A stretch of 23,839 nt of DNA. Origin: a virus (taxonomy: Duplodnaviria > Heunggongvirae > Uroviricota > Caudoviricetes). Shown here one piece after another: positions 1 through 23,839 of the stretch (position 1 is its first letter; each line of letters starts with the position of its first letter). The position numbers and the translations under genes were made by a program. The stretch is taken from IMG/VR virus record IMGVR_UViG_2671180458_000011; one strand, written 5' to 3'. A model generated the notes under the pieces. It ran no database searches. It saw only the letters and a list, made by a program, of their open reading frames with translations, and was not told the origin of the DNA.

Positions 1-2
1 AA

Positions 3-1744: not shown

Positions 1745-1752
1745 GGTAAGGC

Positions 1753-2118: not shown

Positions 2119-2132
2119 TCAGGAAAAATAAA

Positions 2133-2609: not shown

Positions 2610-2733
2610 AGAAGCGGCAATTATCCTGGGGATGGTGACAAAAAGTGGCCCGGAATGGGCGCTTAACCTCCCCCTGTCGCAACTTTACCGGCACTGCCGA
2701 CAGACAGAAAAAATCATCAGAACGAAGCAGTAA
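2551..2733 (+). CDS. candidate frameshift-extension ORF of the tail assembly chaperone
   Basis: Open +1 frame overlapping the last 59 nt of the chaperone ORF and ending 2 nt before the tape measure start; conserved G/GT-like arrangement in tailed phages. Confidence 0.35.
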   Translation: MPESWQLIGGDQAQCRDQIEEAAIILGMVTKSGPEWALNLPLSQLYRHCRQTEKIIRTKQ

Positions 2734-2735
2734 GT

Positions 2736-7859: not shown

Positions 7860-8289
7860 TATTGCTGTCGTCTGGGATCAGGGTTGCGGTTCCCTGCAAC
7901 TGAACGGCGCAGATCTTCTGACGGATAACAGCCTGCTGACTGCGGTCATTATTTCACTGTTTACGGACAGGCGGGCGCTGGATTCCGATGAAATCCCTGA
8001 CGGCACCCGTGACCGTCGGGGATGGTGGGGAGACAGTTTCCGGGAGCGCCCCGTTGGCTCCCGTCTCTGGCTGTTAAGCCGTGAAAAGACGCTGTCCTCC
8101 GTGGTCAGCCGTGCACAGGCCTATGCTGATGAAGCGCTGGCGTGGCTGCATAAAAGCGGTGCTGCCACATCCGTGGTATGTCATGCCATGCGTGTGGGGC
8201 ATGCTCGCCTTTCGCTTTCCGTGAAAATCACCCTGCCGGACGGAAGCAGACATCCGATGATTTTTTATGCTGATATGAAGGGGGAATGA
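7852..8289 (+). CDS. baseplate protein gp46-like
   Basis: 145-aa ORF from ATG 7852 (the ORF track's 7639 start is an upstream in-frame extension overlapping gp45); position between V-like and J-like genes. Confidence 0.7.
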   Translation: MADIAVVWDQGCGSLQLNGADLLTDNSLLTAVIISLFTDRRALDSDEIPDGTRDRRGWWGDSFRERPVGSRLWLLSREKTLSSVVSRAQAYADEALAWLHKSGAATSVVCHAMRVGHARLSLSVKITLPDGSRHPMIFYADMKGE

Positions 8290-9371
8290 TGCCTTATCAG
8301 CCCTTACCACTGGCGCAACTGATCACACAGACACAACAGGATATCAGCCAGCGCCTGCCCGGTTCGCAGCCGGGCGTGAATGAAACCACCCTGAATGCCA
8401 TTGCGTATGCACTCGCGGGTCTGTCAGCACAGGAGCATGAACATCTGGCCTGGATCTCCCGGCAGATAATTCCGACAGAAGCTGATGAAGCCGAACTCCT
8501 GAAACACTGCGCATTCTGGGGTGTCATCCGTAAACCGGCTTCCCGCGCTGACGGACCGGTACAACTGATGCTGACCACGGATGCAGGGATCACGGAAGGC
8601 GTACTCCTTCAGCGAAGCGATGGTGTTGTGTACCGCATCACCGGCTCTGCGACCGGAAAAGCCGGAACACTGAATGTTAATGTGGAGGCGGAAAGTGCGG
8701 GGCGCGCTGGAAATACCCCGACCGGAACCCGCCTGTCCTTTATCACGCCACAGGCGGGCATCAACCAGACAGCCACGGTCACCGGCACGGGACTCACCGG
8801 TGGTGCGGATGTGGAAACGGTGCCGGAGTTGCTGTCCAGGCTGGTATTCCGGGTACAGAACCCGCCATCAGGGGGAACACAGTATGATTTTGAACGCTGG
8901 GCACGGGAAGTACCGGGCGTGACGCGGGCATGGTGTAAGCCTGAATGGCCTGAGGCGGGTAGTGTTGGTGTGACTTTTGTTCAGGATAATAACCCTGACA
9001 TTTTCCCCGGAGAAGGTGATGTGAAGCGGGTGGCGGATTATATCCGCAGTCATGATGATCCGGCGACGGGCCAGCCCGTTGGTCAGCCACTTGGGCCGAC
9101 AATCAGCGTGTTTAAGCTGACCAATAAGCCGGTGGCGTTTGAGATCAGGATTGTACCCAAAACGCCGGAAAATCAGGCTGCCGTAAAACAGGCATTAACG
9201 GACCTGCTTTATAACGAATCGCGGCCGGGTGGACTTGTATTGCCTTCATCATTCTGGCGGGCTGTTGCAGGGGTGAAAGGACTGGAGGATTTTGAAGTTC
9301 GCAGCCCGCTGAAGTCCGTGATGGCCGGAGATACAGAGTTGCTGACCGTGGGGGAAATCACATGGCTGTAA
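8286..9371 (+). CDS. baseplate J-like protein (Mu gp47-like)
   Basis: 361-aa ORF overlapping both neighbours; size and position of baseplate J family. Confidence 0.8.
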   Translation: MMPYQPLPLAQLITQTQQDISQRLPGSQPGVNETTLNAIAYALAGLSAQEHEHLAWISRQIIPTEADEAELLKHCAFWGVIRKPASRADGPVQLMLTTDAGITEGVLLQRSDGVVYRITGSATGKAGTLNVNVEAESAGRAGNTPTGTRLSFITPQAGINQTATVTGTGLTGGADVETVPELLSRLVFRVQNPPSGGTQYDFERWAREVPGVTRAWCKPEWPEAGSVGVTFVQDNNPDIFPGEGDVKRVADYIRSHDDPATGQPVGQPLGPTISVFKLTNKPVAFEIRIVPKTPENQAAVKQALTDLLYNESRPGGLVLPSSFWRAVAGVKGLEDFEVRSPLKSVMAGDTELLTVGEITWL

Positions 9372-9922
9372 CCCTGACCCCGCATCAGCGTGCCCTGTTG
9401 CAGTTGCTGCCTGACGGGCTGGCATGGGATAAGCGGCCGTCATCCGTTCTTGCGGCTTTGTGCCTGGGCCTCAGTCATTCCACGGAGCGTGTTTCCTGGA
9501 CCGGTAACCAGATGCTGGCAGAACGTTTTCCTGATTCATCCCGTCTGCTGCTGGAAGACTGGGAGCGTTATCTGGGGTTACCGGAATGTGATATGACCGG
9601 CGCAACCATTCAGGAGCGTCAGCGTTATGCCGGGAATAAATACCGGATGAAACCCTCTCTTAACCGTGAATTTTATATCCGGTTTGCGGCAGAGTTTGGT
9701 TATGAAATAGATATTCAGCCATCACCGGATTCACAGTGGGTCAGTATTGTCACGATTAACAGTGAAACCGGCTACCGGAATATGAATGTGCTGGATGATA
9801 TTCTCACCCCGCTGCGTATTTATGAGGGTGGTGCGCTGGAATGTATTCTGAACCGTTATAAGCCTGCATGGCAGACGTTTATTTACGTGTATGCAAACAG
9901 CCATGAAGAGGAGACTATTTAA
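9362..9922 (+). CDS. tail protein gp48-like (DUF2313/YmfQ-like)
   Basis: 186-aa ORF directly upstream of the tail fiber gene; its stop overlaps the tail fiber ATG (TAATG at 9920-9924). Confidence 0.7.
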   Translation: MAVTLTPHQRALLQLLPDGLAWDKRPSSVLAALCLGLSHSTERVSWTGNQMLAERFPDSSRLLLEDWERYLGLPECDMTGATIQERQRYAGNKYRMKPSLNREFYIRFAAEFGYEIDIQPSPDSQWVSIVTINSETGYRNMNVLDDILTPLRIYEGGALECILNRYKPAWQTFIYVYANSHEEETI

Positions 9923-10833
9923 TGTTTCATGTTGATAATAATTCCGGCGTGGCGAATATGCCTGCGCTGGCACCGGCGCAGAGTAATACCACCACCTGGT
10001 TTACCGAAGGTGACGGACAAAAAGGTATCAGCTGGATTGGTCAGGACTGGCTGAATATTCTCCAGGCCGAACTGCTGAATATTCTGGCTGAAGCCAGTAT
10101 TCAGCCGGATAAGGCGCAGTTAAACCAGCTTACGCTGTCCATTAAAGCCATTATCGCTGCGAATGCCTTTTCCCGGAAAAACAACCTGAAAGAAATTGCT
10201 GATGCCGGTGCGGAAGCCCAGCGTCTTGCCCGTAGTTATCTTGGTCTTGGGGCGCTTGCCACAAAAAACAGTCTTGGTCCCGGTGACGTTAATGCTCTGG
10301 CGAAGGATCAGAACCTTGCCGACCTGGAGAATGCGGGAACCGCCCGTAATAATCTGGATGTTTACAGCAAAAGCGAAGGTGATAACCGTTACCTGCGCAG
10401 GGAGCAGAACGGCGCAGACATTCCGGATAAAGGCGCTTTTATCGATAACGTCGGTTTACGGGAAACGGTAAATAAGGCTGCTGATGCCCTGCCATCGGGT
10501 GGAACCGCCGTGGCAGCAAACAGACTCGCCACCCCAAGAAATATTAATGGCGTTCCTTTTGACGGAACGCAGGATATCAACATCACGTCAGGAATGACGC
10601 AGTCAACCGCAGATGGCCGGTATGTACAGAATGTTCAGCTTGGAGCACAGAGCTATCATTCACCCGGAGGCAATGAAATATCATGGAATTACAGCGCACC
10701 TTCCGGTTGTATGCTTTCCGGTATTAACGTGCAGGAAACCGGCTCCCGGTCTGCGGACAATATCGGTGGGGTCTATTATCGCCCGGTTCAGATTTATATT
10801 AATAATGCCTGGAGAACGGTAAGTTCAGTGTAA
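9922..10833 (+). CDS. tail fiber protein: constant part (9922 to about 10451) fused to the currently in-frame variable part Sv (about 10465-10833)
   Basis: 303-aa ORF; a gix-like crossover site lies inside it at 10439-10464; its C-terminal tail resembles that of the inverted cassette on the opposite strand. Confidence 0.8.
   Translation: MFHVDNNSGVANMPALAPAQSNTTTWFTEGDGQKGISWIGQDWLNILQAELLNILAEASIQPDKAQLNQLTLSIKAIIAANAFSRKNNLKEIADAGAEAQRLARSYLGLGALATKNSLGPGDVNALAKDQNLADLENAGTARNNLDVYSKSEGDNRYLRREQNGADIPDKGAFIDNVGLRETVNKAADALPSGGTAVAANRLATPRNINGVPFDGTQDINITSGMTQSTADGRYVQNVQLGAQSYHSPGGNEISWNYSAPSGCMLSGINVQETGSRSADNIGGVYYRPVQIYINNAWRTVSSV
10439..10464 (+). other. gix-like recombination site, left (inside tail fiber gene)
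   Basis: TTATCGATAACGTCGGTTTACGGGAA: 26-bp site with two imperfectly symmetric 12-bp halves around a 2-bp core, closely resembling the Mu gix / Hin hix architecture. Confidence 0.7.
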
Positions 10834-10843
10834 ACCACAGAAA

Positions 10844-10862
10844 AGGGTGCTGAATGCACCCT
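10844..10862. terminator. stem-loop between convergent tail fiber and tfa genes
   Basis: 7-bp stem AGGGTGC/GCACCCT with 5-nt loop, between tail fiber stop (10833) and tfa stop (10868); T-rich stretch follows on the + strand. Confidence 0.35.
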
Positions 10863-10867
10863 CTGAA

Positions 10868-11440
10868 TTATTCCGGTTTTTCCGGCCAGGGAATCGCCTG
10901 GTAATGCCCCTCACTGGCAATATCATTAAAGTGCATTTCTTTAAGCTGTCGGATATACGCCATCCAGCGCGTCAGCTGTAATTTATTTTCATCGCTAATC
11001 ATGTCCAGTTTTAATTCTGTTTTCCAGTCATCCACGGTTTCGTTGGCTTCCTGGAGCAGCGATGAGCGACGCTTTTCAGCAACCGTCTTCCAGTTTACCG
11101 GCACCTTTGATATCAGGCCATCAGAAAACTGCCAGTTACCGTCAATATTCACACCTTCCGGCAGTTCGTCCACTTCAACAACAGTAAAACCTGCCGGATA
11201 TAAAGCAGAGACATCTTCAGCAACAGAGCAGATAATACCCGTTACAGGCGAAATACAGAGTTTGTATTTCTTTGTGAAAAGCGGGATAGATTCATAAAAA
11301 TCCCTTCCGTCCTCACTCTGGAAATACTGAACATCCTCACCATAGGGTTTGTCTTTCGGGTAATATCGTTTGACATTAATCAGTTGCATAAACATCACCA
11401 TGTAAATCAATGATAAAAACAGGAATAATACTATCGCCAT
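10868..11440 (-). CDS. tail fiber assembly protein (Tfa/U'-like), paired with the inverted Sv' cassette
   Basis: C-terminus ends in the Tfa-type motif (IPWPEKPE). The first 17 codons are strongly hydrophobic, so the real start may be the internal ATG at 11389. Confidence 0.65.
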   Translation of the reverse strand: MAIVLFLFLSLIYMVMFMQLINVKRYYPKDKPYGEDVQYFQSEDGRDFYESIPLFTKKYKLCISPVTGIICSVAEDVSALYPAGFTVVEVDELPEGVNIDGNWQFSDGLISKVPVNWKTVAEKRRSSLLQEANETVDDWKTELKLDMISDENKLQLTRWMAYIRQLKEMHFNDIASEGHYQAIPWPEKPE

Positions 11441-11510
11441 ATACAGGCAATGCTTGTCTGAAATAACGCATATTTCAGATGCTGGCTGCTGTGTGCTATG
11501 CCCCCGTTAA

Positions 11511-11877
11511 TTAAATACTTGCAGCGGATACCCAATGCCCATTAATACAATATTGTATCTGTCTGTAATAAACACGGTCATCACCACCACGCATTTCCCA
11601 GTCTCCGTTAGTCTTAAAACCGGTAATCACATTTCCTGATGACAGGGAGTAATTATATTCCAGTCCGCCGCTTAATGCCTGCGCTCCCAGTCTTACCCCT
11701 GTAACATAACGCTGATTGGCCGTTGATTCCGGCATTCCTGACGTAATGTTTATATCCTGCGTGCCGTCAAAGGCGACACCATTGATTCTGCGGGCATTTG
11801 CCAGCCTGCTTGCTGCAACAGCCGTACCGTTTGATGGCAGGGCATTCGCGGCCCTGTTTACAGTATCCCGTAAACCG
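11511..11877 (-). CDS. alternative tail fiber C-terminal cassette (Sv'), promoterless in the current orientation
   Basis: Minus-strand frame open from the right gix-like site to the stop at 11511; C-terminus resembles that of the + strand fiber. Confidence 0.6.
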
Positions 11878-11890
11878 AGGTTTCAGGGAT
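11865..11890 (-). other. gix-like recombination site, right (inverted relative to left site)
   Basis: ATCCCGTAAACCGAGGTTTCAGGGAT; the 12-mer CCCGTAAACCGA is the exact reverse complement of TCGGTTTACGGG in the left site; sits just upstream of gin as in Mu. Confidence 0.7.
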
Positions 11891-11944
11891 GCCGTATATC
11901 TGCTTTAAAAGGCCTTTCCACCTCTTTTTAAGGAAGGTAAATAC

Positions 11945-12505
11945 ATGCTGATTGGCTATATACGCGTATCAACAAATGACCAGAACACAGGTTTACAAAG
12001 AAATGCGCTGGAATGTGCAGGATGTGAGCAGATTTTTGAAGACAAAATGAGTGGTAAAACGACACAGCGGCCGGGACTGAAGCGGGCACTGAAGAAACTA
12101 AAACCCGGTGACACGCTGATGGTCTGGAAACTGGACAGGCTGGGGCGCAGTATGCGCCACCTTGTTGCGCTGACAGATGAATTACAGCAACAGGGGATAA
12201 ATTTTCGTAGTCTTACTGACAACATTGATACGTCAACCCCCATGGGGCGCTTCTTTTTTCACATAATGGGTGCGCTGGCAGAAATGGAGCGTGAATTAAT
12301 TGTCGAACGGACACGGGCTGGTCTTGCAGCTGCCCGTGAAAGGGGACGAACCGGCGGCAGACCCCGCCGTCTCACGCAGGAACAATACGAGCAGGTCGGG
12401 CGTTTACTGGCCGGGGGTGTCAGTCGAAGACAGGTGGCACTTATTTTTGATATCGGTCTTTCAACCCTTTATCGTTATTATCCTGCGAGCGTTTCGGAAA
12501 AATAA
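11945..12505 (+). CDS. gin: serine DNA invertase (Gin/Pin/Hin family)
   Basis: 186-aa protein beginning MLIGYIRVSTNDQNTGLQRNALECAGCEQIFEDK, near-identical in pattern to Mu Gin including the catalytic-serine N-terminal domain and C-terminal HTH; AAGGAAGG Shine-Dalgarno upstream. Confidence 0.9.
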   Translation: MLIGYIRVSTNDQNTGLQRNALECAGCEQIFEDKMSGKTTQRPGLKRALKKLKPGDTLMVWKLDRLGRSMRHLVALTDELQQQGINFRSLTDNIDTSTPMGRFFFHIMGALAEMERELIVERTRAGLAAARERGRTGGRPRRLTQEQYEQVGRLLAGGVSRRQVALIFDIGLSTLYRYYPASVSEK

Positions 12506-12604
12506 GACGCTCTCTTTGTTGGGCCTTTACTGAATTAACGCAAAATGGCGTTTATCGGTCTGTGGATATGATAATTCAGTTTATTCAGGAACAGGCTGAT
12601 TATT

Positions 12605-14644
12605 ATGACGTCCAAATGGGTTCAACTATCATCAATGCCCGGAAACTTTACTGTTAAAGTTTCCGGTGGTACAGCGGCATTTCTTGAGGCTCCCTTTCCT
12701 CCGGCCGAAACAAAAGGAGGAATGACATTTGCTGACTGTCTCATCAGTTTTAATACACGGGATTGCCTGTGGGTAAGGCCAGTATCCGGTGATCCGAGTG
12801 TGGAAATTACCGGAGCGGGTATTGGTGCGGTCATTCCGTTAAGTGCTGATGTTGCCGGTACTGCTGAACCGTCAGACTGGGATAATGCTGAAACACATAC
12901 CCGTCCGTCAGGAAATGAAACTGCTTCCAGCTCCCCTTCCTGGTATTACGTGGTGGTTCTTGCTGGTCAGTCAAACGGTATGGCTTACGGTGAAGGTCTG
13001 CCACTGCCGGAGACATATGACCGCCCCGAACCGCGTATTATGCAGTTAGCCCGTCGCAGTACAGTCACGCCGGGAGGTAAAGCCTGTCAGTATAACGACA
13101 TCATTCTGGCCGACCACTGTCTGCATGATGTGCAGGATATGAGTGGAAAAAATCACCCGAAAGCGGATGTGGCTAAAGGGCAATATGGCACCGTGGGTCA
13201 GGGGCTTCACATTGCCAAAAAACTGCTGCCGTTTATTCCGGCAGATGCGGGGATTCTGCTGGTTCCCTGCTGCCGTGGTGGTTCTGCATTCACGGCGGGT
13301 GCTGACGGCACGTACAGTGACAGCACGGGTGCTTCAGAGGACTCAGCCCGCTGGGGTGTGGATAAGCCGCTGTATAAGGACTTAATCAGCCGGACAAAAG
13401 CGGCACTGGCGAAGAACCCGAAAAACCGCCTGCTTGCTGTGGTGTGGATGCAGGGCGAGTTTGATATTGATGCGAAGCCGACGGAGCATTCTGCGCTGTT
13501 TCTGGCGATGGTGGAAAAATTCCGCGCAGACCTGGCTGAACAGGCGGAACAGTGTACCGGTGGCAGTGCTGCTGGCGTTCCGTGGATTTGTGGTGATACC
13601 ACGTATTTCTGGAAACAGAAAAACGAACAGGCATACCAGGCAATCTATGACGGCTACAAAAATAAAACAGATAAAAACATTCATTTCGTCCCATTAATGA
13701 CAGATGAAAATGGCGCGAATGTACCCACCAACAATCCGGCAGAAGACCCGGATATTGAATCCATTGGTTATTACGGCTCAACGTGGCGTAACAGTGCCGC
13801 CACCTGGACATCTGCGGACCGGGCCAGCCATTTCAGTTCATGGGCACGTCGTGGGATTATTTCCGACCGTCTGGCCACGGCAGTTCTGACTCATGCGGGG
13901 CGAACCACAGTAAAAGCCGATGTTCCATCTTCTGAAACTGAAGCACCAGTGCCGTCACCTTCAGAAACTGAAGCAGTAACCACAACACTGCTGTCTTACC
14001 GTGTCAGTGAGTCAGAAGGAAATCTGAAAGCCCAGGGCTGGGAGCCGGCTGGCGGTAAAGCTGAAATTATCAGTGATGCAGGAGGCACAGGTGGTAAGGC
14101 AATGAAACTGACCAAGGAAACAGGTAAATCATCCTGGTATCTGGATCATGATGCCGGTACTGGTGCTGAACTGCTGAAAAATGGTGGTTTAATCAGTTGT
14201 CGTTTTAAAGTACCGGGCGACCTGGTGGCAAACCAGTATGTCATGGCGCTTTACTGGCCGGTTTCCTCTCTGCCGCAGGGTGTCACCCTGACAGGGGATG
14301 CAGGGAATAATCTGCTGGCATCGTTCTACATCCAGACAGACGCAAAAGACCTGAATGTGATGTACCACAATGCAAAAGTGGCAACAAATAACCAGAAACT
14401 GGGAACCTTTGGTGCATTTGATAATGAATGGCATACGCTGGCCTTCCGTTTTGCAGGAAATAACAGCCTTCAGGTTATTCCGGTTATTGATGGTCAGGAT
14501 GGTGCCGCGTTTACCCTGACGCAGTCACCAGTAGGAACTTTCCCGGTGGACAAACTCCGCGTAACGGATATCACAAAAAATGCAACTTACCCGGTGCTGA
14601 TTGACAGCATTGTGGTGGAAGTGAAAAAAGCGGTAACAGAATAA
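12605..14644 (+). CDS. SGNH/SASA-type esterase with C-terminal lectin-like domain (NanS-p-like sialate O-acetylesterase candidate)
   Basis: 679 aa; GQSNG block at about residue 120, WMQGEFD block and a D-x-x-x-H block consistent with SASA/DUF303 esterases; Pro/Ser/Thr/Glu-rich linker then about 230-aa beta-rich domain. Family call from motif recognition only. Confidence 0.5.
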   Translation: MTSKWVQLSSMPGNFTVKVSGGTAAFLEAPFPPAETKGGMTFADCLISFNTRDCLWVRPVSGDPSVEITGAGIGAVIPLSADVAGTAEPSDWDNAETHTRPSGNETASSSPSWYYVVVLAGQSNGMAYGEGLPLPETYDRPEPRIMQLARRSTVTPGGKACQYNDIILADHCLHDVQDMSGKNHPKADVAKGQYGTVGQGLHIAKKLLPFIPADAGILLVPCCRGGSAFTAGADGTYSDSTGASEDSARWGVDKPLYKDLISRTKAALAKNPKNRLLAVVWMQGEFDIDAKPTEHSALFLAMVEKFRADLAEQAEQCTGGSAAGVPWICGDTTYFWKQKNEQAYQAIYDGYKNKTDKNIHFVPLMTDENGANVPTNNPAEDPDIESIGYYGSTWRNSAATWTSADRASHFSSWARRGIISDRLATAVLTHAGRTTVKADVPSSETEAPVPSPSETEAVTTTLLSYRVSESEGNLKAQGWEPAGGKAEIISDAGGTGGKAMKLTKETGKSSWYLDHDAGTGAELLKNGGLISCRFKVPGDLVANQYVMALYWPVSSLPQGVTLTGDAGNNLLASFYIQTDAKDLNVMYHNAKVATNNQKLGTFGAFDNEWHTLAFRFAGNNSLQVIPVIDGQDGAAFTLTQSPVGTFPVDKLRVTDITKNATYPVLIDSIVVEVKKAVTE

Positions 14645-14649
14645 AAAAA

Positions 14650-14678
14650 TCCCGCCGGTCATGATATGGCTGGCGGGA
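14650..14678. terminator. stem-loop after the esterase gene; canonical intrinsic terminator only when read on the minus strand
   Basis: Stem TCCCGCC/GGCGGGA (extendable with wobble pairs) with A7 run immediately 5' on the + strand, which is a U-tract 3' of the hairpin on the minus strand. Confidence 0.4.
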
Positions 14679-14790
14679 GCTACCTAACCCATAAAGGAAA
14701 ATAAAAATACTCCCGAAGGAGTGGTTATCAGTCGCTTCGATGTTTTTACCCGATAACGAATTATGTAGTCAATATCAAAGGTAAGGTTAT

Positions 14791-14973
14791 ATGACATTCG
14801 TTCATACAATGCTGCTTTATTTCTGCGCAGTGGTCAGTGCGTTATATCTGGTGAGCGGCGGTTATAAGGTCATCAGAAATTATATTCGCCGTAAAATTGA
14901 TGATGCGGCAGCTGAAAAACTCAGTAAAACAGCACAGGCACCGTCATCCCCAAACGACCCGACCCCGCTCTGA
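14791..14973 (+). CDS. small predicted membrane protein (60 aa), unknown function
   Basis: Single N-terminal hydrophobic helix then charged tail; AAAGGTAAGG Shine-Dalgarno-like sequence upstream; AT-rich foreign-looking DNA. Confidence 0.4.
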   Translation: MTFVHTMLLYFCAVVSALYLVSGGYKVIRNYIRRKIDDAAAEKLSKTAQAPSSPNDPTPL

Positions 14974-15008
14974 TAACGGGGCAATATACCTGCAAAAGGA
15001 GAATATTC

Positions 15009-15254
15009 ATGCCAGAGATTAAAGGCACGGTTACTGAAGAGCTTGTCAAACAGGCACTTTATTCTGAAGAAGTGAACCGCGTGCTGAAGGCGCAGGTTCG
15101 CAAGGATTTTGAGGCACAAATCGACGCATATGTTGATGAAGTGCTGGCCCGAATGGTTGGCCATTCTCCGGCTGAAAACAGCACGGAGAATGAGCCTCAA
15201 GCCGTAGAGCAACCAGAGCCGGTTCAGCCCGGAACTGACGGTACTATGATGTAA
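15009..15254 (+). CDS. small acidic protein (81 aa), unknown function
   Basis: AAAGGAGA Shine-Dalgarno 7 nt upstream of ATG; helical-looking N-terminal half and acidic Pro/Glu-rich tail; followed by a hairpin. Confidence 0.45.
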   Translation: MPEIKGTVTEELVKQALYSEEVNRVLKAQVRKDFEAQIDAYVDEVLARMVGHSPAENSTENEPQAVEQPEPVQPGTDGTMM

Positions 15255-15263
15255 CAATACCGA

Positions 15264-15283
15264 CCGGCAGGTTTCCCTGCCGG
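15264..15283. terminator. hairpin between convergent small genes
   Basis: CCGGCAGG-TTTC-CCTGCCGG, 8-bp stem with 4-nt loop, between the + gene ending 15254 and the minus gene ending 15293. Confidence 0.4.
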
Positions 15284-15292
15284 GTGAATTTG

Positions 15293-15463
15293 TTAATGCA
15301 CGTTTTGTGTACTTTCCCTCCGGGGAGAACAGGCAGGACATATCAGCATCCTGAAACAGGACGCATTTTGGGGTTTGTATGTCTTGCCATTTTGAGATCG
15401 AGAACGGCGATAGATGAGCTGTAAGGGAGTCTTACAGGCAGGGCAAACAGGCTCTTTATCCAT
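15293..15463 (-). CDS. small zinc-ribbon protein (56 aa, two CPAC motifs), unknown function
   Basis: Minus-strand ATG at 15463 preceded by AGGAGA with 8-nt spacing; Cys-Pro-Ala-Cys at residues 7-10 and 41-44. The ORF track's longer version (to 15487) starts upstream of the Shine-Dalgarno sequence. Confidence 0.4.
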   Translation of the reverse strand: MDKEPVCPACKTPLQLIYRRSRSQNGKTYKPQNASCFRMLICPACSPRRESTQNVH

Positions 15464-15565
15464 GATAAAGATCTCCTTTTTATGCATCTCTGCTTTACAG
15501 GAGACCGGGGAATATCATAGGATACGCCACGAGCTCGAAGTAAAGCATTGATGCGAATTTGTTCC

Positions 15566-15595
15566 AGGTCCAGATAGCTGTAACTATCTGGACCT
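15566..15595. promoter_or_regulatory. perfect 12-bp inverted repeat with 6-bp spacer (candidate operator or hairpin)
   Basis: AGGTCCAGATAG ctgtaa CTATCTGGACCT in the divergent intergenic region between the zinc-ribbon gene and com. Confidence 0.4.
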
Positions 15596-15643
15596 CCCTT
15601 TATGTAGTATCCTGTTGATTTGAAACATACTACATATACGCGC

Positions 15644-15821
15644 GATCCTACCTTCACTGTATAAAAAGTCAATAAAATGATCATTTTATGATCGTTTTCA
15701 CCACCTAAGTCTTCGTTTTCTTTAAGTAAATAATCACCGCCCTGAATCATTGTTGATGACTTTTCAATCTATTTGTTGTATCAATTAAACAAATCGAATC
15801 GATCGTTTTTGTCGATCGATT
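15644..15821 (+). promoter_or_regulatory. GATC-dense mom-operon control region (candidate Dam-methylation-sensitive promoter region)
   Basis: Five GATC sites in about 175 bp (15644, 15679, 15690, 15801, 15814), including a 9-bp inverted repeat AATCGATCG n7 CGATCGATT at 15797-15821 just upstream of com. Confidence 0.45.
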
Positions 15822-15864
15822 GCATGAGAAAGGCATCAACAACAAAGCAGGAGGTTATGCGGCC

Positions 15865-16065
15865 ATGTATCGAAACATACGGTGCCGACACTGCAATAAG
15901 CTACTGGCACGGGCCAGTTTCAGTTATCTGGAAGTAAAATGTCCGCGCTGTAAAACCCTCAATCAAATCACATCTCCGAGCGCCACAGAGCACCCCACAT
16001 ACACAAGGAAATCCTGTCGTGGGGAACAGAAAGCAAGCCACATCCCGTATCATCAGCACGCCTGA
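15865..16065 (+). CDS. com: Com-like zinc-finger translational activator of mom
   Basis: [14 protein letters not shown]...VKCPRCKTL...EHPT matches the Mu Com four-cysteine pattern; AGGAGG Shine-Dalgarno 10 nt upstream of ATG 15865 (ORF track starts at TTG 15820); 3' end overlaps the next gene as in Mu. Confidence 0.7.
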
Positions 16066-16756
16066 ACTTATTCGCTATAACGACAATATCGTTGGTTATG
16101 GCTCCCGTGAGTTGCGGGTTGAGACAATAAGTTGCTGGCTGGCCAGACTGGTCATCGTCAATAAACATTACAGCCACCGTTTCGTAAATAACTCCTACCT
16201 TCATCTGGGCATATTTTCAGAACGGGAGCTGGTTGGCGTAATGCAATGGGGCTATGCCCTTAATCCAAACAGTGGTGCACGCGTCGTAACGGGCACGCGG
16301 AACCGTGAATATATGGAGCTTAACCGGTTATGGCTGCATGACTGTATGCCGAGAAACTCCGAATCAAGGGCAATCAGTTACGCGCTCAAGCTAATCAGGC
16401 AGCTTTATCCGCAGGTACAGTGGGTTCAGTCGTTTGCAGATGAGCGTTGTGGCTGTCTTGGTGTCGTGTATCAGGCAAGCAATTTTGATTATGTAGGCAG
16501 CCACGAATCAACATTCTATGAACTTGATGGCGAGTGGTATCACGAGATTTGCAGGAATGCCATTAAACGAGGCGGACAGCGAGGTGAACATCTGAGGGCT
16601 AATATCGACAGAGCCAGTGTTCATAAATTCCGTCAGTTTCGTTACATCCGGTTTCTGAACAAGAGGGCCAGAAAACGCCTCAACACAAAGCTATTCAAAG
16701 TCCAGCCTTACCCAAAACCACAAACAGTTAAAACTGGTTTAAAAGAGAGTGAGTGA
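16019..16756 (+). CDS. mom: Mom-like DNA modification protein
   Basis: 245-aa ORF (GTG start) beginning inside the 3' end of com, the characteristic com-mom overlap; last gene before the prophage right end as in Mu. Called from context, not from remembered sequence. Confidence 0.6.
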
Positions 16757-18044
16757 ACGCTTAAAAACTCATTCTAAAACCCAAAAGAAAAGCGCCGATT
16801 TAGTATCAAATAAGTTGCGTATCGGCGTTTTTCAGCGGTATCAAATGAAATGCAAATCGGTATCAAAAAAATCGCCGCGCTATAATAAGCAGCTCAGAGC
16901 TGCCAATAAAGTCACTAACGTGCTGGATACAGAACTCACATCAGCCCGTGCCGCGGAACGTAAGGCCCAGCAAACTGCACAACAAGGTATGAAGGAAGAA
17001 GAGCGAGAGTTGTGCGCGTCACATTTTCCAGTGGTGACTTTGGAGCAATTGCCTGACATTCGCGATTTAGAACGTCAACATGAGCGGGGAATTCAGCATG
17101 AAATTGAAAGAGTTAAAGCTGAACTACATCGACTGAACATTGAGTTGACCAAACGTATGTCTGAAGCCAAACGTGTGGATACCGGGGCGCTCGTTGAGGC
17201 AGGGGCTGATTTGGACGATATTACTGTTTATTTACAGCGTTTGCAGGAACTGACCGAAGAAGCCCTGCCGGAAAAGCTCAATCGCTTCCTTGATTATCTT
17301 AACCGTTCATCCGATGACGGCGTAACACAACTGCTTAGCCATATTGAGCATGAGGTGCTGGTGATTGAGGAGCGCCTCAATGAACTCAATGAAACTATGT
17401 TCAGGGTTGATTTTCAGCCGTATCGCTACCTGCGTCTGGATACCAAAAAAGTTGTCCATGAAAGCCTGCGCACGCTTGAAAAAGCACAGCGTCAGCTAAA
17501 TGCCGCCCGATTTGTTGATGATAATGGCGAGAGCTATTATAAGGCTTTGCAGATACTGGTGGCGCAATTGCGGGATGCTTGTGAACGAAACCGTACCCTG
17601 GGAGCAAAAGCGCTACTGGATCCCCGTTTTCGACTGGAGTTCGCCGTATCGGTGATGGATCGTCAGAGCGGAAATGTGATTGAGTCTCGTACCGGCTCAC
17701 AGGGTGGTAGCGGTGGAGAAAAAGAGATTATCGCTTCTTACGTGTTAACAGCTTCACTTAGCTACGCACTTTGTCCTGCGGGGAGCCGTTATCCGCTTTT
17801 CGGTACCATTATCCTTGATGAAGCCTTCTCCCGCAGTTCTCATGCGGTGGCGGGTAGGATCATTGCCGCGCTTAGAGAATTTGGCTTACATGCAGTATTT
17901 ATCACCCCCAATAAGGAAATGCGCCTGCTGCGTGACCATACTCGTTCGGCGATTGTTGTCCACCGGCGCGGTCAGAATTCCAATATGGCTTCTCTGAGCT
18001 GGGAAGAGCTTGAACGACACTACCAGCGACGGGGGAACGCGTAG
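16749..18044 (+). pseudogene. jetC 3' fragment: C-terminal half of a Wadjet SMC-like ATPase, truncated by the prophage
   Basis: Contains signature-like GSGGEKE, Walker B IILDEAF and an H-loop His but no Walker A; the first 48 codons or so (16749-16896) are a Lys-rich read-through of phage-end sequence; coiled-coil-like sequence begins about 16897. Confidence 0.6.
16800..16896 (+). repeat. prophage right-end repeat array (candidate transposase-binding sites) ending in CA
   Basis: Three direct copies of GTATCAAA at 16803, 16838 and 16860 plus ATCGGCG/ATCGCCG motifs; GCGTTTTTC at 16825-16833 resembles part of the Mu R-end; terminal CA at 16895-16896. Confidence 0.4.
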
Positions 18045-18045
18045 G

Positions 18046-19194
18046 ATGTATTCCCCAGATGAATTGCGTGAAAAGCTTGCCCGGCAGTGGGATAGCGCAA
18101 AACTTCGGGCTGAACGCTTACTGTCCCCCGGTAACTGGCCGCTCTGCCTGCCTATTGGTAAACCTTCCACGAAAATATTTGCAGAGCAGACTCAGCGCGT
18201 TTTGCAGCACGTACAGCGATGGAGGCAAGTTGCGGTTGGGCACGTGGAATGGGAAGCGGTGAGTTATCGGGCAAGTGATACACCAGTATTAATGCCGTTG
18301 CGCTGGATTCTGAATAGCCCTTCTGAGTGGATCAACGCCGCTGCGGATCCGGTTGTGAGCCGGGAATTTCGCTTGCTGGAAGGAATTATTGAACAAGTTA
18401 ATCCCATTTTTCACCCGCTGTTGGTAAAGCATCGCTCTCTCTGGCGGCACAAAGATCCGCAGGGCGTCATCAGCGCCGCCACGCTGGCCTGCCGATTAGA
18501 GCCGGGCTGCGCAAAAGGGCTGCCGTTAAGATTGCTTTCCGGGCAAGGAGTGGATACCAAATTTATCGAGAATAATATTTCGTTATTAACCCGACTGTTA
18601 GACGTGCGGTTTTCAGGAGAAGCCAGCGAGCAGGGATTAACAACTTTTCTTGATGCTTTTGATGAGTCCAGTCACTGGGTTTTAGTTGTACCATTATCAC
18701 CCGGCTTACTTCCTTTTAAAAAATGCCGGGTAACAACGGCGGAACTGGCAGAAACAACATTACCTGCGTCGCAAGTACTGGTGGTTGAAAATGAGCAGTG
18801 TCTGCATCATCTTCCAGCATTATCTGACACTATCGCGATTTTAGGCTGTGGCCTGGACGTGCAATGGCTATCCAGTTCTGTTCTGGATGAAAAACGCGTT
18901 GCTTATTGGGGGGACATGGATAGCTGGGGATTACTGATGCTGGCGAGAGCCAGGCGCTGTCGTCCGACGCTTGATGCCCTGCTCATGAACCGTGAGTTGT
19001 TTGAGCAGTATGCCAGTCATAGCGCCGTTCCAGAACCGGTCATAGCGAAGGAAGCTGTACCTGATGGCTTGCTTAACGAAGAGGCCGATTTTTATCGCTA
19101 CTTAACCCGTTTACCGTGTGGTCGTCTGGAGCAGGAGTTTTTGCCAGTGGGGATTGCGGAAGAGGTGCTTCTCAGGTGGGGAAAAGAGAGTTAA
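18046..19194 (+). CDS. JetD-like Toprim-domain protein (Wadjet subunit D)
   Basis: ATG at 18046 two nt after the jetC stop (ORF track starts at TTG 18010); about 382 aa with VVENE and YWGDMD motifs typical of the DUF2220 Toprim-like domain. Confidence 0.65.
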   Translation: MYSPDELREKLARQWDSAKLRAERLLSPGNWPLCLPIGKPSTKIFAEQTQRVLQHVQRWRQVAVGHVEWEAVSYRASDTPVLMPLRWILNSPSEWINAAADPVVSREFRLLEGIIEQVNPIFHPLLVKHRSLWRHKDPQGVISAATLACRLEPGCAKGLPLRLLSGQGVDTKFIENNISLLTRLLDVRFSGEASEQGLTTFLDAFDESSHWVLVVPLSPGLLPFKKCRVTTAELAETTLPASQVLVVENEQCLHHLPALSDTIAILGCGLDVQWLSSSVLDEKRVAYWGDMDSWGLLMLARARRCRPTLDALLMNRELFEQYASHSAVPEPVIAKEAVPDGLLNEEADFYRYLTRLPCGRLEQEFLPVGIAEEVLLRWGKES

Positions 19195-19552
19195 AAAAGT
19201 CATGCTTGCTCTGGAAGGTTATTTACGCGGTATTTTGTAGTGGTTGTTGCGAAAGTCTGCGTTGATGGTCCTGATACCTTACCGGGTAGAGGGACTTTCC
19301 ATCAGTCAGTTTAGATACTGTGGCAACTGTCGCCTTTAGGTGGACAAATGCATAAATTATTAAACTATTAAATTTCTTGTTTTCAGGCAGCAGAGAGAAG
19401 GTATATCAGAGGGTACTGAGGTGTATAAACGTCACGAACATCCGTGAAAAGGCGAAAAAAACCAGCCAATAGATAATGCTTTGCAATGGCCAGAAATCTA
19501 CCGTAGCCAGAAAGTGAAAAAGCCCCGCTTTGCAGCGAGGCCTTATGAATAG

Positions 19553-19575
19553 TGGTGCCCGGACTCGGAATCGAA
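19553..19575 (-). repeat. 3'-terminal 23 nt of tRNA-Phe (att-type direct repeat); not a functional tRNA
   Basis: Minus strand reads TTCGATTCCGAGTCCGGGCACCA, matching the 3' end of E. coli tRNA-Phe (T-loop, acceptor strand, CCA); sequence further upstream does not form a tRNA body. Confidence 0.65.
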
Positions 19576-19747
19576 GATTTCATTTATCATATTGATATTA
19601 ATCTCGTTTATTTGGTTTGATGAAAAATGTACCCTCTCTTGTACCCTCGGTCCCTTCTGGTGGTTTTTATGAGAACAAGTAGATCAAGATTTTTGTCATC
19701 AGAACACGTGTATTTTTGTGGGTTTTATTCCTGAGTTTTATTCCTTT

Positions 19748-20590
19748 TTATATCGCTAACGCTCCGGGATAGTGCTTAGCAATAATATCATTAAGCCTGT
19801 CAACCAGCTCTGGTTTCCTGAACGTGATGTGCGCGGAGCCCTTCTTAAAGTATCTGATGCTGAACATCTCATCTTCATAGTCCTCTTTACCCTGAACAGA
19901 CTGGACGTGATCATCCAGATGAATAGTGATGTTTTCCCGGTTGTCGGGGATCGGTTTGCCGCTGAACAGGTGTAGCATTCTTTCCAGATCAGCAAGTCGA
20001 TCTGCCTGTTGCCCGGTGATAAGATGAAAGCCCCACCGGTCCCACCTCATCAGGTTGTTGACGATAATTTTACTGCCAAATTTGCAGGGGCAATTGGTTT
20101 TGTAATTCCAGCTCAACCCTCTGAAGACGTTGATCACCCCCCGCTCAAACACCTCATCCTTATTCTGGTGCAGTTGTTCAAATGTGCTCAGAATGTTCGC
20201 TTCACTGATTTCCGGAAAATTATCGTATTCCAGTGACCGGTACCATGTATCACGGGCCTGTGCATCCATTAAGGAAAGCATCCCGGAACGTTGCATCAGG
20301 TCACGCCAGATTTCGCGATCGAGATTGCGTGTGATGGCTTTCATTGCGGTTTCAGGTTTCTCCATCAGCCAGCAACCGCAGTGAAAATTCTGTTTCATGG
20401 CCCAGTCCAGTGCGGTTTTACCGCCAATGCTTTCTGTCATTGCTGAGATTTCAGCCAGTTGCCGGATAAGTGTGTCGATTTGCAGCAGTGTACTCTTTCG
20501 TACAGCCAGAATGTGGAGGATACTGGTTGAGCAGATAACGTCCGTATGCCAGTTGACAACTTCCGGACGGGAGACTGTGATATCAGACAT
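19748..20590 (-). CDS. conserved hypothetical protein (280 aa; possibly DUF4942 family)
   Basis: Long ORF at the extreme island end next to the att repeat; family name is a tentative recollection. Confidence 0.5.
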   Translation of the reverse strand: MSDITVSRPEVVNWHTDVICSTSILHILAVRKSTLLQIDTLIRQLAEISAMTESIGGKTALDWAMKQNFHCGCWLMEKPETAMKAITRNLDREIWRDLMQRSGMLSLMDAQARDTWYRSLEYDNFPEISEANILSTFEQLHQNKDEVFERGVINVFRGLSWNYKTNCPCKFGSKIIVNNLMRWDRWGFHLITGQQADRLADLERMLHLFSGKPIPDNRENITIHLDDHVQSVQGKEDYEDEMFSIRYFKKGSAHITFRKPELVDRLNDIIAKHYPGALAI

Positions 20591-20674
20591 AATCGATATT
20601 CCTTTTTGCAGATAAATGAAAACGCCAGCCCTGTTCAGGCTGGCGTCAGTGGAATGAAGTCTGGTGAGTGAGAG

Positions 20675-20872
20675 TCACCGGTTCTGGTGCAGAAGCTGCA
20701 ACTGGCGCAGTGTACGGATATCTTCCCTGGCCTGTTCAATGCAGGGCAGCAGTGCTGCCGAATCCGTTTTATCCTCATCGTTGTCAAAGATAATTCCCGA
20801 TTCGCAGTCGATATTGTCCTGCAGCCACGCAATCAGAATATCCAGCGCTGTTTCCGTGGTTAATGATTTCAT
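20675..20872 (-). CDS. small conserved protein (65 aa; YeeW-like, possibly DUF957)
   Basis: ATG at 20872, 11 nt after the stop of the upstream gene; the ORF track's longer version (to 20917) overlaps that gene. Confidence 0.45.
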   Translation of the reverse strand: MKSLTTETALDILIAWLQDNIDCESGIIFDNDEDKTDSAALLPCIEQAREDIRTLRQLQLLHQNR

Positions 20873-20883
20873 GTTGTTTCTGG

Positions 20884-21372
20884 TTACCAGTTGAAAGTGG
20901 GTAAACCCGGCAGGCATTCAGCGCTGGCATCCAGATGAATGAGACTGACGCCATAACGTCGGGTAAGTGTGACAACCAGACGGCGGAACGTTTTTGACAG
21001 CCCCAGGCGTTTAAGCCGCAGAACCGGGTATGACCACGCATCGGTACGTAACAGATATCCGCTACCTGTGAAATGAATCCATTCTGATTCGCCGGTGTCA
21101 TTCGTCTGATGTGACAGCGAGTACAGCCAGGCGTTGTCCTTTGCAGTGATATGCGCGGTACTGCAGCGTATGCCGGTCAGGGCAGCAAATGGTGGCGTGC
21201 AGTCTGTTGAGACCCGGTCAGATTCATCAACAACACGAAGGGAGTGGCCATTGTCGCAGACCACGTTAATCAGTTCAGCGAGATTAACACCATCGACGTC
21301 AACGACAATTCGTCCCATGTTCAGCGTCTGCACGTTAACGCTGTCTGCTTCCAGCGTCAGAGTCAGTTTCAT
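20884..21372 (-). CDS. conserved hypothetical protein (162 aa; possibly DUF5983), translationally coupled to cbtA
   Basis: Start overlaps the cbtA stop (ATGA-type overlap at 21369-21372). Confidence 0.5.
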
Positions 21373-21746
21373 TGTTTCGCCTCCGGATGCTTCCCCTGGG
21401 TAATGTTATTTACCGTTCTGTAATTGTCGCGGGTCATCAGGCCGGTCGCCCTGCGAGCCCGGAGGATATCGATGCTGTTTATTAACTGAGAACGGGTACA
21501 GGCATTGAATTCCGGCTGGTCGGTACGCACCAGTGCGTATTTTTCAACAAGAAAGTTCACTGCATCGCACAGTGAAATGCCAGCTTCAATATGCTGCTCA
21601 ATCACACGTTCATCGGCAAACGGTGTGTCATTCAGTGTGAGGCCATAATGCTGGTCCAGCAGTCGGATGAGCAGTGTCTGCCAGATGGTGACGGGAGACG
21701 GGCAGCGAGATACCTCCCGTACATGTGTGTCGGATAATGTTTTCAT
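21369..21746 (-). CDS. cbtA: CbtA/YeeV-family toxin (type IV TA, cytoskeleton-targeting)
   Basis: [14 protein letters not shown]...[48 protein letters not shown] matches the CbtA/YeeV/YkfI/YpjF family; start taken at the internal ATG 21746 (ORF track 21848 extends into the antitoxin gene). Confidence 0.85.
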
Positions 21747-21792
21747 CTTAAGTTCTCTGTAACTGGTAGTGCTAAAGGTGAGAGCTTCGGGG

Positions 21793-22167
21793 TTATGAGG
21801 TGGTTGCGGGTGCCTGTGCCGGATAAACAGCCAGATAAACGTAACCACAGGAGCCGAGGGTGTCGGCTTCGCAGGTCAGCCCTTTTGCATACAGCGTGAC
21901 GGTATGCTGATTTCGGGGATTCAGTTCACCGCTGGTGAGCATGAGTTCCAGTTGTTTCATCAGCAGCGGAAAGGCCTGGTCCAGATGGTATGCATCTGCG
22001 TCGCTGAAGCGGCCGCTGATACCGGCGCGGTCGGCAAGGTAATGCAACCGGTTACCCTCCTGCACCAGACGGGCGCCAAAACAGGGTTTCACTGTGCAGG
22101 GAAGCCCCCACCAGGGGCGGTCGTGATTGTCGTCGGGATGAGTTATCCCGGAGAGTTTGTCTGACAC
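21793..22167 (-). CDS. cbeA: CbeA/YeeU-family antitoxin (type IV TA)
   Basis: 124 aa with [16 protein letters not shown]...[19 protein letters not shown], the YeeU/YfjZ/YafW family pattern; directly upstream of the toxin. Confidence 0.85.
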
Positions 22168-22329
22168 GATAAAATCCTCTCTGAAAAGTGGTTAAGAATG
22201 GTTTAACGATGACAGGTCAGCCGGGGCACTGACCGGTTTCGGTGAAGATGTATGCATTGATGAGAATGGCCTCATCCACAGCGGCGTCTGAGGTCATCTG
22301 GTCGTACTCGTTTCCCGGGTGACGGAACA

Positions 22330-22551
22330 TCAGTTCAGGGTGACGCTCATCAGCCGGACATACGGGCCAAAACTGTCCTTATGGCGTTCAGCAAACACGG
22401 CCAGCACACCGGGAATATCCTGCACTTCACGACCGGTATACGCTTCAGTGCTGCCGTGCCAGCGGTATTTGCCGGTACAGAAAGGAAAAAGACGGGATGC
22501 CGGATGTTGTTGGTGAATACGCATGGCTTCACCACGGGTGATGATTTTCAT
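22330..22551 (-). CDS. YeeT/YpjJ-like protein (DUF987)
   Basis: 73 aa, MKIITRGEAMRIHQQHPASRLFPFCTGKYRWHG pattern of the YeeT family; conserved position between RadC-like and antitoxin genes. Confidence 0.8.
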   Translation of the reverse strand: MKIITRGEAMRIHQQHPASRLFPFCTGKYRWHGSTEAYTGREVQDIPGVLAVFAERHKDSFGPYVRLMSVTLN

Positions 22552-22613
22552 AGTGTGATACCTCTGAAGACAGAAGATAAAAGTGAAAACAAGCGTGATG
22601 TGGTTGTGACGGG

Positions 22614-23105
22614 TTAAAGCAGACCATGTTCGGCAAAGGAGAAAACCTGGTTGCCACCGACTATCAGATGGTCCGGCACCCGGATATCCACCAGGCCCAG
22701 TGCCTGTACCAGACGTTCCGTGATAAGGCGGTCTGCCTTGCTGGGTGTGACTTCACCGGACGGGTGATTGTGCGCCAGCACCACGGCAGCGGCATTGTGG
22801 TACAGGGCGCGTTTAATCACTTCCCGGGGATGGACTTCCGTGCGGTTGATGGTGCCGGTGAAGAGGGTTTCACCGGCAATCAACTGATTCTGGTTATTCA
22901 GATACAGCACCCGGAATTCTTCACGCTCCAGTCCCGCCATGTTCAGAATCAGCCATTCCCGTGCCGCACGGGTGGAGGTGAAGGCCACGCCGGGTTCATG
23001 AAGATGGCGGTCCAGGGTTTTCAGGGCCCGCAGAATGAGACTGCGCTCACCGGGCGTCATCTCTCCGGGCAGAAAGGAAAGTTGTTGCATTGTGCTTCTC
23101 TCCAT
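22614..23105 (-). CDS. RadC-like JAB-domain protein (YeeS/YfjY/YkfG family)
   Basis: 163 aa with the HNHPSG JAMM-type motif; likely start at the internal ATG (MQQLSFLPGE). Confidence 0.85.
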   Translation of the reverse strand: MERSTMQQLSFLPGEMTPGERSLILRALKTLDRHLHEPGVAFTSTRAAREWLILNMAGLEREEFRVLYLNNQNQLIAGETLFTGTINRTEVHPREVIKRALYHNAAAVVLAHNHPSGEVTPSKADRLITERLVQALGLVDIRVPDHLIVGGNQVFSFAEHGLL

Positions 23106-23591
23106 TCAGTCGATGATGCGCATAATGGCGCTGCATTCCGGATGCTGCAGGGCGTAATCCCGCAACCGGTAATAATGGACCGTCATGGCATAACACTCCG
23201 TACGACAGGCATGATGACTGTACGTCATCAGACAGGCGGCAATGCCGGCGGCTTCCGGGCTCATTTCAGCGCGGTTACCGTTCATGGCATTGAACAGTAC
23301 CCAGTTTTCGCCATCATCGTCATCCGGTTCGGGGGCCATAAATGCGCCACCGTTGTTCAGTGTGTACAGATTCCAGATACCACCGCAGTAGTCTTCGCAA
23401 AGACGGTCCATCCAGCCGAAGATACGGGGCTCCAGGGTCACCCACTGTGGAATGAGGCCAAAATGCTGCGGCCAGAAGCTGATGCGCTGTTCATCAGGGA
23501 CTATGGTGGCAACCAGCTGAGACTGGTCATTCCCTGATGCAGCGGTTACGGAAACAGAAGATGTGGTGGAATTATGTGAAATGGTTTTCAT
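23106..23591 (-). CDS. antirestriction protein (YfjX/YafX/KlcA-ArdB-like)
   Basis: 161 aa; sequence pattern of the CP4-type antirestriction family; immediately upstream of the RadC-like gene as in CP4 islands. Confidence 0.75.
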   Translation of the reverse strand: MKTISHNSTTSSVSVTAASGNDQSQLVATIVPDEQRISFWPQHFGLIPQWVTLEPRIFGWMDRLCEDYCGGIWNLYTLNNGGAFMAPEPDDDDGENWVLFNAMNGNRAEMSPEAAGIAACLMTYSHHACRTECYAMTVHYYRLRDYALQHPECSAIMRIID

Positions 23592-23645
23592 GAAATGACT
23601 CCTTAAAGGACAAATAAATGCGTGGTTTTCAGGGTAATGGCTGAA

Positions 23646-23839
23646 TCAGCCCACGCCCCCCAGCCGCGTTTCCCCCCTCACCCACCATGCGCGGCTGAGC
23701 TTACTGTCAGTGTCAATGCCGTGAATCGCACGGGTATGGATACGTTTCCCTTTAGCCCTGCGCCCTGAAATTCCGCCTTTCAGCATCTTCTCCTGAATGG
23801 TCTGATAAGCACTCCACAGCTCCTTCCCGTACTCCTCCC
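23646..23839 (-). CDS. 3' end of an unidentified CDS running off the window edge (partial)
   Basis: Minus-strand frame open from the window edge to a TGA at 23646-23648, translating ...EEYGKELWSAYQTIQEKMLKGGISGRRAKGKRIHTRAIHGIDTDSKLSRAWWVRGETRLGGVG; not in the ORF track because its start is outside the window. Confidence 0.4.
   Translation of the reverse strand, partial: EEYGKELWSAYQTIQEKMLKGGISGRRAKGKRIHTRAIHGIDTDSKLSRAWWVRGETRLGGVG

Follow-up and report, generated by a model that had tools for sequence, protein, structure and literature searches.

The prophage carried by the window, i.e., the whole stretch of 23,839 bases that was analysed, ends at position 16884, and host DNA follows from position 16885. 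We consider it highly probable that positions 16802-16884 form the attR of an Sp18-family, Mu-like prophage inserted in jetC, with three site cores (R1 to R3), a TA end and a 4-bp stagger.

The prophage, its right end and the interrupted jetC gene

By its sequence, the prophage in the window is of a known kind, a transposable, Mu-like element of the Sp18 family, and as an element it is ordinary. Sp18 of E. coli O157:H7 Sakai is a Mu-like, active prophage (PMC2669165), relatives of which are carried by STEC genomes (PMC7430833, PMC10132054); phages of this family are widespread and active in Shiga-toxin-producing E. coli. Roughly 284 Sp18-type copies are contained in the complete E. coli genomes. 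The window prophage exhibited approximately 98% nucleotide identity to Sakai Sp18 across 16.9 kb (98.3% over 11.4 kb and 97.9% over 5.2 kb), the same order of tail genes, invertase, DUF6645, com and mom, and an identical right-end sequence, such that identity, gene order and termini all place it in the E. coli Sp18 family. The two copies differ in their insertion sites, the window copy sitting in jetC, and in a 322-nt stretch adjoining the invertase (11381-11702) that did not align. This stretch, which lies between the reverse-strand tail-fibre-assembly/tail-fibre genes and the DNA invertase gene (11945-12505), may represent an invertible host-range segment in a variant form or in a different orientation. 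A gene encoding 679 amino acids (12605-14644), located between the invertase and com genes, has no Mu counterpart and contains a Pfam SASA (sialic-acid-specific acetylesterase-like) domain together with DUF6645. Downstream of it come DUF1378, DUF826 and, on the reverse strand, a 135-aa ORF without a family.

The last prophage genes, the prophage end and the adjoining host genes are as follows.

15865 to 16065, plus strand: com, zinc-ribbon translational activator of mom (Pfam Zn_ribbon_Com, E 2e-12; identical relatives are annotated "Com family")
16019 to 16756, plus strand: mom, DNA modification gene and final gene of the prophage (Pfam Mom, E 4.5e-77; relatives are annotated as Mom family protein)
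16881 to 16884, plus strand: terminal TATA, with 16884 as the last prophage nucleotide and the predicted 3' end for cleavage and strand transfer (Sp18 alignment, 25 flanks, empty allele)
16885 to 18044, plus strand: host jetC (Wadjet SMC-like ATPase), of which the truncating insertion leaves the 3' part here (Pfam SbcC_Walker_B; genome matches)
18046 to 19194, plus strand: host jetD, intact, context outside the phage end (Pfam DUF3322 and JetD_C)

The mom gene showed approximately 71% nucleotide identity to the mom genes of Mu and D108. In three relatives (L124, L107 and L288), the same right end is present with a DNA cytosine methyltransferase gene replacing mom directly before attR.

A 1-kb query spanning the junction (window 16400-17400) was compared by Megablast with 5,426 complete E. 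coli genomes. The matches split exactly at 16884|16885, with the phage side found in many loci and the host side found as uninterrupted jetC; both halves together were present in none of the 5,426 genomes. The window reads ...CGCCGCGCTATA|ATAAGCAGCTCAGAG across this point. An empty allele (L001) reads CTCGATAAGCAG within an annotated CDS and matches the window from 16885, its uninterrupted sequence being ...GAACTCGATAAGCAGCTCAGAG... Moreover, 25 distinct right flanks from complete genomes and IMG/VR contigs shared the phage sequence through ...GCGCTATA and diverged at the very next base, and 23 distinct left flanks were collected for Sp18-type insertions. As at a Mu-type attR, conserved phage DNA thus borders on host DNA that is specific to each insertion. 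Finally, the alignment of window positions 1-16884 with Sakai Sp18 stopped on the last Sp18 base, which is exactly 16884. Because the empty allele, the 25 diverging flanks and the Sp18 alignment all break at the same place, we set the prophage end at 16884.

Two other ends had been proposed in a first-pass annotation made from the letters of the window, and the empty-site comparison suggested there for checking them revealed a different junction, the one at 16884|16885 that recurs in the 25 independent insertions. The first proposal, canonical TG...CA termini ending at the CA of 16895-16896 with a 5-bp duplication beyond, is extremely unlikely. A CA does occur at that position, and two other insertions carry CA 6-7 nt past the TATA (ATAAGCA in L002 and CAACGCA in L003). 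However, positions 16885-16896 are identical to uninterrupted host jetC, the 25 insertions part at 16885 and not at 16897, and the Sp18 alignment halts at 16884. Nor are the "empty" jetC alleles remnants of a phage end, since their CDS is continuous across this point. The reading frame said to turn protein-like right after the CA is that of jetC, which has already resumed 12 nt earlier, at 16885. The second proposal, an end at the CA of 16842-16843, drew on the local likeness of GCGTTTTTC...CA to the Mu R end; we consider it next to impossible, as this CA falls within the R2 core GTATCAAA and identical phage sequence runs on for another 41 nt in all relatives.

The host sequence at 16885-18044 was 100% identical to genes annotated "SbcC/MukB-like Walker B domain" in four E. 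coli genomes and 98.6-99.8% identical in five more, and the uninterrupted jetC allele was found in nine listed E. coli genomes. In L001, the gene order is DUF3375, DUF4194, jetC and jetD, i.e., that of the Wadjet jetABCD locus. On this gene content and order, the prophage disrupts jetC of the Wadjet (JetABCD) anti-plasmid system of E. coli. The match to L001 spans 16885-19575 and ends 24 nt into the 3' end of a tRNA-Phe gene (window 19553-19575). No tRNA gene was reported by ARAGORN in 16800-23839, and the segment at 19553-19575 looks like a 3' fragment of tRNA-Phe marking the junction with a different genomic island.

The left end of the window's own insertion lies outside the 23.8-kb window, and the left-end data presented here come from relatives. 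The left junction predicted for this insertion, ...GAATCTGAACTCGATAA|TGTAACCAGGTGAATCATTTGATACC... (in short form, ...GAACTCGATAA|TGTAACC...), was absent from the metagenome and viral collections searched. The Sakai ends found here are 5040970 and 5079724. The RefSeq "prophage Sp18" feature (L297, NC_002695.2, 5040971..5079729) begins at GTAACC..., one base too far inward, and overruns the right end by five bases (...TATA+TAAAG). The exact boundary matters for annotation: the prophage in the window ends at 16884 and disrupts a Wadjet gene, and both boundaries of Sp18 in RefSeq are misplaced by a few bases. Prophage finders that rely on TG...CA and a 5-bp repeat would misplace the ends of Sp18-family elements, as happened in the first-pass annotation.

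Target-site duplication and terminal dinucleotides

Sixteen pairs of ends were compared, 13 from complete genomes of E. coli, among which is the Sakai Sp18 pair in sorM, and three from IMG/VR. An exact 4-bp repeat abutted the ends in 15 of these pairs, Sakai Sp18 included, and not the 5-bp duplication that had been expected beforehand; examples are TAAA (Sakai), ATCA, ATAA, TAAG, AGTA, AGAA, CCCC and CGAT. The host base preceding the repeat was A in four of the 16 pairs, which is the chance rate, and G, C or T in 11 pairs. Since a fifth repeated base would have to be A, these 11 of the 15 pairs rule out a perfect 5-bp repeat. When two empty sites were rebuilt by removing one 4-bp copy, they aligned without gaps to E. 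coli genes (296/296 bases), namely fdeC, in the case of the TA-TA copy L319/L147, and a lambdoid terminase gene, in the case of a copy of the ...CTTTA group. Four candidate pairs (L015/L003, L283/L121, L285/L148 and L318/L115) were rejected, their flanks coming from different loci or lacking a shared repeat, with several copies or rearranged genomes involved. Stop-free reading across rebuilt junctions was tried as a test of pairing, but a non-pair also gave 165 aa and this test was replaced by the empty-site alignment.

The corresponding feature in the window is the following.

16885 to 16888, plus strand: ATAA, right copy of the probable 4-bp duplication, the left copy lying beyond the window (host allele ...CTCG ATAA GCAG...)

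The empty allele has G before ATAA at the window's site, so the same 4-bp pattern is seen there. From this allele and the pattern in Sp18-family relatives, we infer that ATAA is the duplication made by the window insertion.

The one exception among the 16 pairs is L008/L009, an insertion in ureC of E. coli FRIK944, where the right end reads TATA-T-TGAA and the left flank GTGAA. This is either a 5-bp repeat with a mismatch at its first base or a 4-bp repeat with one extra T. A different reading of all pairs would place the phage end at 16883 (...GCGCTAT) and take the stagger to be 5 bp, with A invariably taking the place of the first base of the right repeat, e.g., if the 5' T of the non-transferred strand were ligated and mismatch repair were then biased. 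Mu makes 5-bp duplications (PMC8705779), the ureC pair can be read as five bases with a change in the first position, and a 5-bp repeat is readable in the four pairs with A as the host base. That base occurs at its chance rate, however, and the reading needs repair to be biased towards the phage strand in every case; none of the 11 informative pairs had TAT with the host base next to it. Furthermore, relatives ending in ...CTACA put their terminal A at exactly the position of 16884. We therefore regard a 5-bp stagger from 16883 as unlikely, and retain the end at 16884 with a 4-bp duplication.

Duplications of 5 bp are described for Mu and of 6 bp for B3 (PMC8705779). No report of a 4-bp duplication for any transposable phage, and no paper giving the exact termini or the duplication length of Sp18, was found in the literature searched.

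Among the 25 right flanks, the first duplicated base was A in 15, the fifth base (the first host base after the 4-bp repeat) was G or C in 20, and the sixth was C in 17. The target consensus of Mu is N-Y-G/C-R-N. The preference observed here (25 right and 23 left flanks) is only partly symmetric and does not fit that consensus; its symmetry gave the best correlation at the 4-bp register, at a weak r = 0.28.

The right end was ...TA-3' in all 25 E. coli-group insertions, and not CA-3' as in the TG...CA-type terminus first described for the window. The ...CTATA of E. coli corresponds to ...CTACA in relatives from Leminorella grimontii and in several IMG/VR contigs, the distance from R1 being unchanged. 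Among the CA-ended IMG/VR contigs are those behind L131, L135, L114 and L108. The TATA of E. coli is therefore a C-to-T variant of the canonical end and not the product of a mis-set boundary, and the CA-ended relatives display the same end geometry as the TA-ended Sp18 family. At the left, the Sp18 type has TG, the T being present in every independent site examined. Other left ends, in independent copies (L235, L313, L314, L318 and L319 from IMG/VR, as well as L327 and L329), start with TA: several begin TATAACCAGG... (TATAACC...), and those of the ...CTTTA group begin TATAGAGAGG... or TATGAAGAGG... (TATAGAG... or TATGAAG...). Left ends starting with TA, together with right ends in TA, imply that TA-TA transposable prophages exist in enterobacteria.

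Repeated sites at the prophage ends and the hairpin after mom

The 8-mer GTATCAAA occurs at 16803-16810, 16838-16845 and 16860-16867, in each case on the plus strand and within 65 bp. These three copies, already pointed out in the first-pass annotation, have no further counterpart on either strand of the 23,839-base window. Shuffled sequences gave an expectation of 0.76 copies, and 3 of 100 shuffles reached three copies anywhere; the clustering of the actual copies is far beyond chance. The sites and a hairpin that overlaps the innermost of them are listed below.

16802 to 16823, plus strand: R3, innermost putative transposase-binding site, with a nominal 22-bp extent (core 16803-16810, 82 nt from the end)
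16837 to 16858, plus strand: R2, putative transposase-binding site (core 16838-16845, 47 nt from the end; contains the CA of 16842-16843)
16859 to 16880, plus strand: R1, terminal putative transposase-binding site (core 16860-16867, 25 nt from the end)
16787 to 16833, plus strand: hairpin with arms 16787-16799 and 16821-16833 and R3 in its loop (RNA fold -21.7 kcal/mol, z = -5.64)

The core is GTATCAAA on the plus strand and TTTGATAC when read inward from the terminus. At the right end, the cores start 25, 47 and 82 nt from the end, TTTGATAC being met at 18, 40 and 75 nt in the inward direction, and R1 and R2 are spaced 22 bp apart. The left end of relatives carries inverted cores at 18, 113 and 165 nt, read inward, which adjoin the repressor and transposase genes. 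In Sakai Sp18 (38,755 bp), six of eight copies of the 8-mer lie at the two ends, in inverted orientation. We compared three diverged groups, i.e., the E. coli Sp18 type, a group ending ...GCGCGCTTTA ("CTTTA") and a Leminorella-type group ending ...GCGCGCTACA; the core starts at 25, 47 and 82 nt were exact in all three despite different spacers, and the end sat 17 nt after GGTATCAAA in every relative examined. As is typical of an attR, the last 100 bp or so of the prophage thus contain several repeats of a putative site, which recurs in inverted orientation at the opposite end of relatives, and these comparisons support the view that the GTATCAAA copies behave as cores of putative transposase sites. 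Six putative transposase binding sites in Sp18 are stated in a paper on phage KS10 (PMC2628397). Morgan et al. in 2002 probably described six sites in Sp18.

A scan of species genomes for the R2-R1 pattern returned 87 loci, nearly all of them chance matches or tandem iterons, and only those of Leminorella grimontii (L024 and L059) were relevant. A gapped left-end pattern searched in viral contigs gave mostly noise among the matches listed; a specific left-end pattern and a transposase-based search were superior.

The hairpin was missed by a simple promoter/terminator scan, its loop exceeding 8 nt, and was revealed by RNA folding. None of 200 shuffles folded as well, and the 3' arm, which ends in TTTTT, includes ATCGGCG (16821) and GCGTTTTTC (16825-16833). 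From the predicted fold, it is probably the transcription terminator of mom and happens to enclose R3. The repeats might have another function where the mom operon ends, e.g., to bind a regulator or host factor or to form part of the terminator only, given that a strong hairpin follows mom and has R3 in its loop and that binding by the transposase is argued by analogy. We regard such a role as very unlikely, since the same core is found three times, inverted, at the far left end beside the repressor and transposase genes, since the cores have kept their distances from the terminus but the hairpin has not kept its sequence, and since relatives with the cytosine methyltransferase instead of mom retain the sites. 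The reading of the repeats as putative transposase sites is preferred.

GCGTTTTTC had been taken for a part of the Mu R end. The 9-mer does occur in the right end of Mu, where it lies inside R1 at 13-21 nt from the end; here it belongs to a hairpin arm, 52-60 nt away from the prophage end, and relatives have not conserved it. By these comparisons, the likeness is coincidental. What endures of the first-pass annotation is a Mu-family right end just after mom with multiple putative transposase sites, now backed by conserved core positions and inverted left-end copies in relatives, as well as the motifs ATCGGCG and ATCGCCG (the latter, given without a coordinate, at 16871). Both proposed termini, the CA end, the 5-bp duplication and the resemblance to the Mu R end had to be given up.

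Proposed transposition mechanism and comparison with known systems

In relatives, the transposase combines the Pfam domains Mu-transpos_C and HTH_Tnp_Mu_1 in one protein, and a second protein with Phage-MuB_C and AAA domains is a MuB-like ATPase. A MuA-type transposase and a MuB-type ATPase were thus found in relatives, the left part of the window prophage being located outside the window. The relatives' transposase had no Pfam match for a DDE core at E <= 0.001, and phmmer searches against the PDB returned no MuA chain, with weak matches to retroviral integrase cores only. Because phmmer gave no MuA structure, the label "MuA-like" rests on the two flanking Pfam domains.

By analogy with Mu, we infer the following course of events. 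The transposase would be encoded at the left end, beyond the window, together with the MuB-like ATPase, and would bind R1-R3 and the three inverted left-end copies (L1-L3), thereby pairing both ends. A nick would be made after the terminal A at 16884, the resulting 3'-OH would be joined to target DNA, and the MuB-like protein would deliver that target. In the Sp18 family, the two joins would be staggered by 4 bp, which would leave ATAA on both sides of the window insertion.

The TA terminus and the 4-bp duplication of the Sp18 family appear to be an undescribed variant of end chemistry. It is fairly likely that the Sp18-family transpososome joins the ends 4 bp apart, not 5, and tolerates TA, rather than CA, as the transferred 3' dinucleotide (on the right side in Sp18, on both sides in sister lineages). 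If true, the family would constitute a natural series for studying what sets the target stagger and the need for a conserved CA in DDE transposases.

The closest comparison is with the attR of Mu. Both follow com and mom, contain three sites in approximately 80 bp, show a 22-bp spacing between R1 and R2, and have a first site that starts a few bases from the terminus, and in both the three left-end sites are spread over approximately 170 bp. The Mu terminal block GCGCCGCTTCA is similar to CGCCGCGCTATA at the end of the window prophage. The differences concern the sites and the chemistry. The MuA sites are CGAAA-containing 22-mers, whereas the core here is TTTGATAC, and comparison with Mu end sequences did not reveal the 22-bp MuA consensus at this prophage end. 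R3 has the same orientation as R1 and R2 here, whereas the third right-end CGAAA-type motif of Mu, which we take to be its R3 site, is on the opposite strand. Mu has a CA end and a 5-bp duplication, in contrast to the TA end and 4 bp of the Sp18 family, and the transposase of the Sp18 relatives is too diverged for a phmmer match to MuA structures.

The B3/D3112 group resembles the Sp18 family in being transposable, in having repeated end sites and, for B3, in a duplication other than 5 bp (6 bp; PMC8705779). According to published descriptions, it is set apart by that 6-bp rather than 4-bp duplication and by TG-CA ends. TG-CA was conserved in all Mu- and B3-like phages described until the TA-TA ends of Leptospira prophages were reported as new, with the question of whether they occur in other bacteria (PMC8705779). 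The Leptospira elements share with the Sp18 family their TA termini, found at both ends in some Sp18 relatives, and are evidently still transposing. They differ in having B3/Tn552-type transposases and 6-bp duplications (PMC8705779), as opposed to the 4 bp and the TG left end of the Sp18 type; a 6-bp duplication of the B3 or Leptospira TA-TA kind is not what is seen here. The E. coli Sp18 family answers the question raised for Leptospira in the affirmative, with TA ends in other bacteria, and adds to them a 4-bp duplication.
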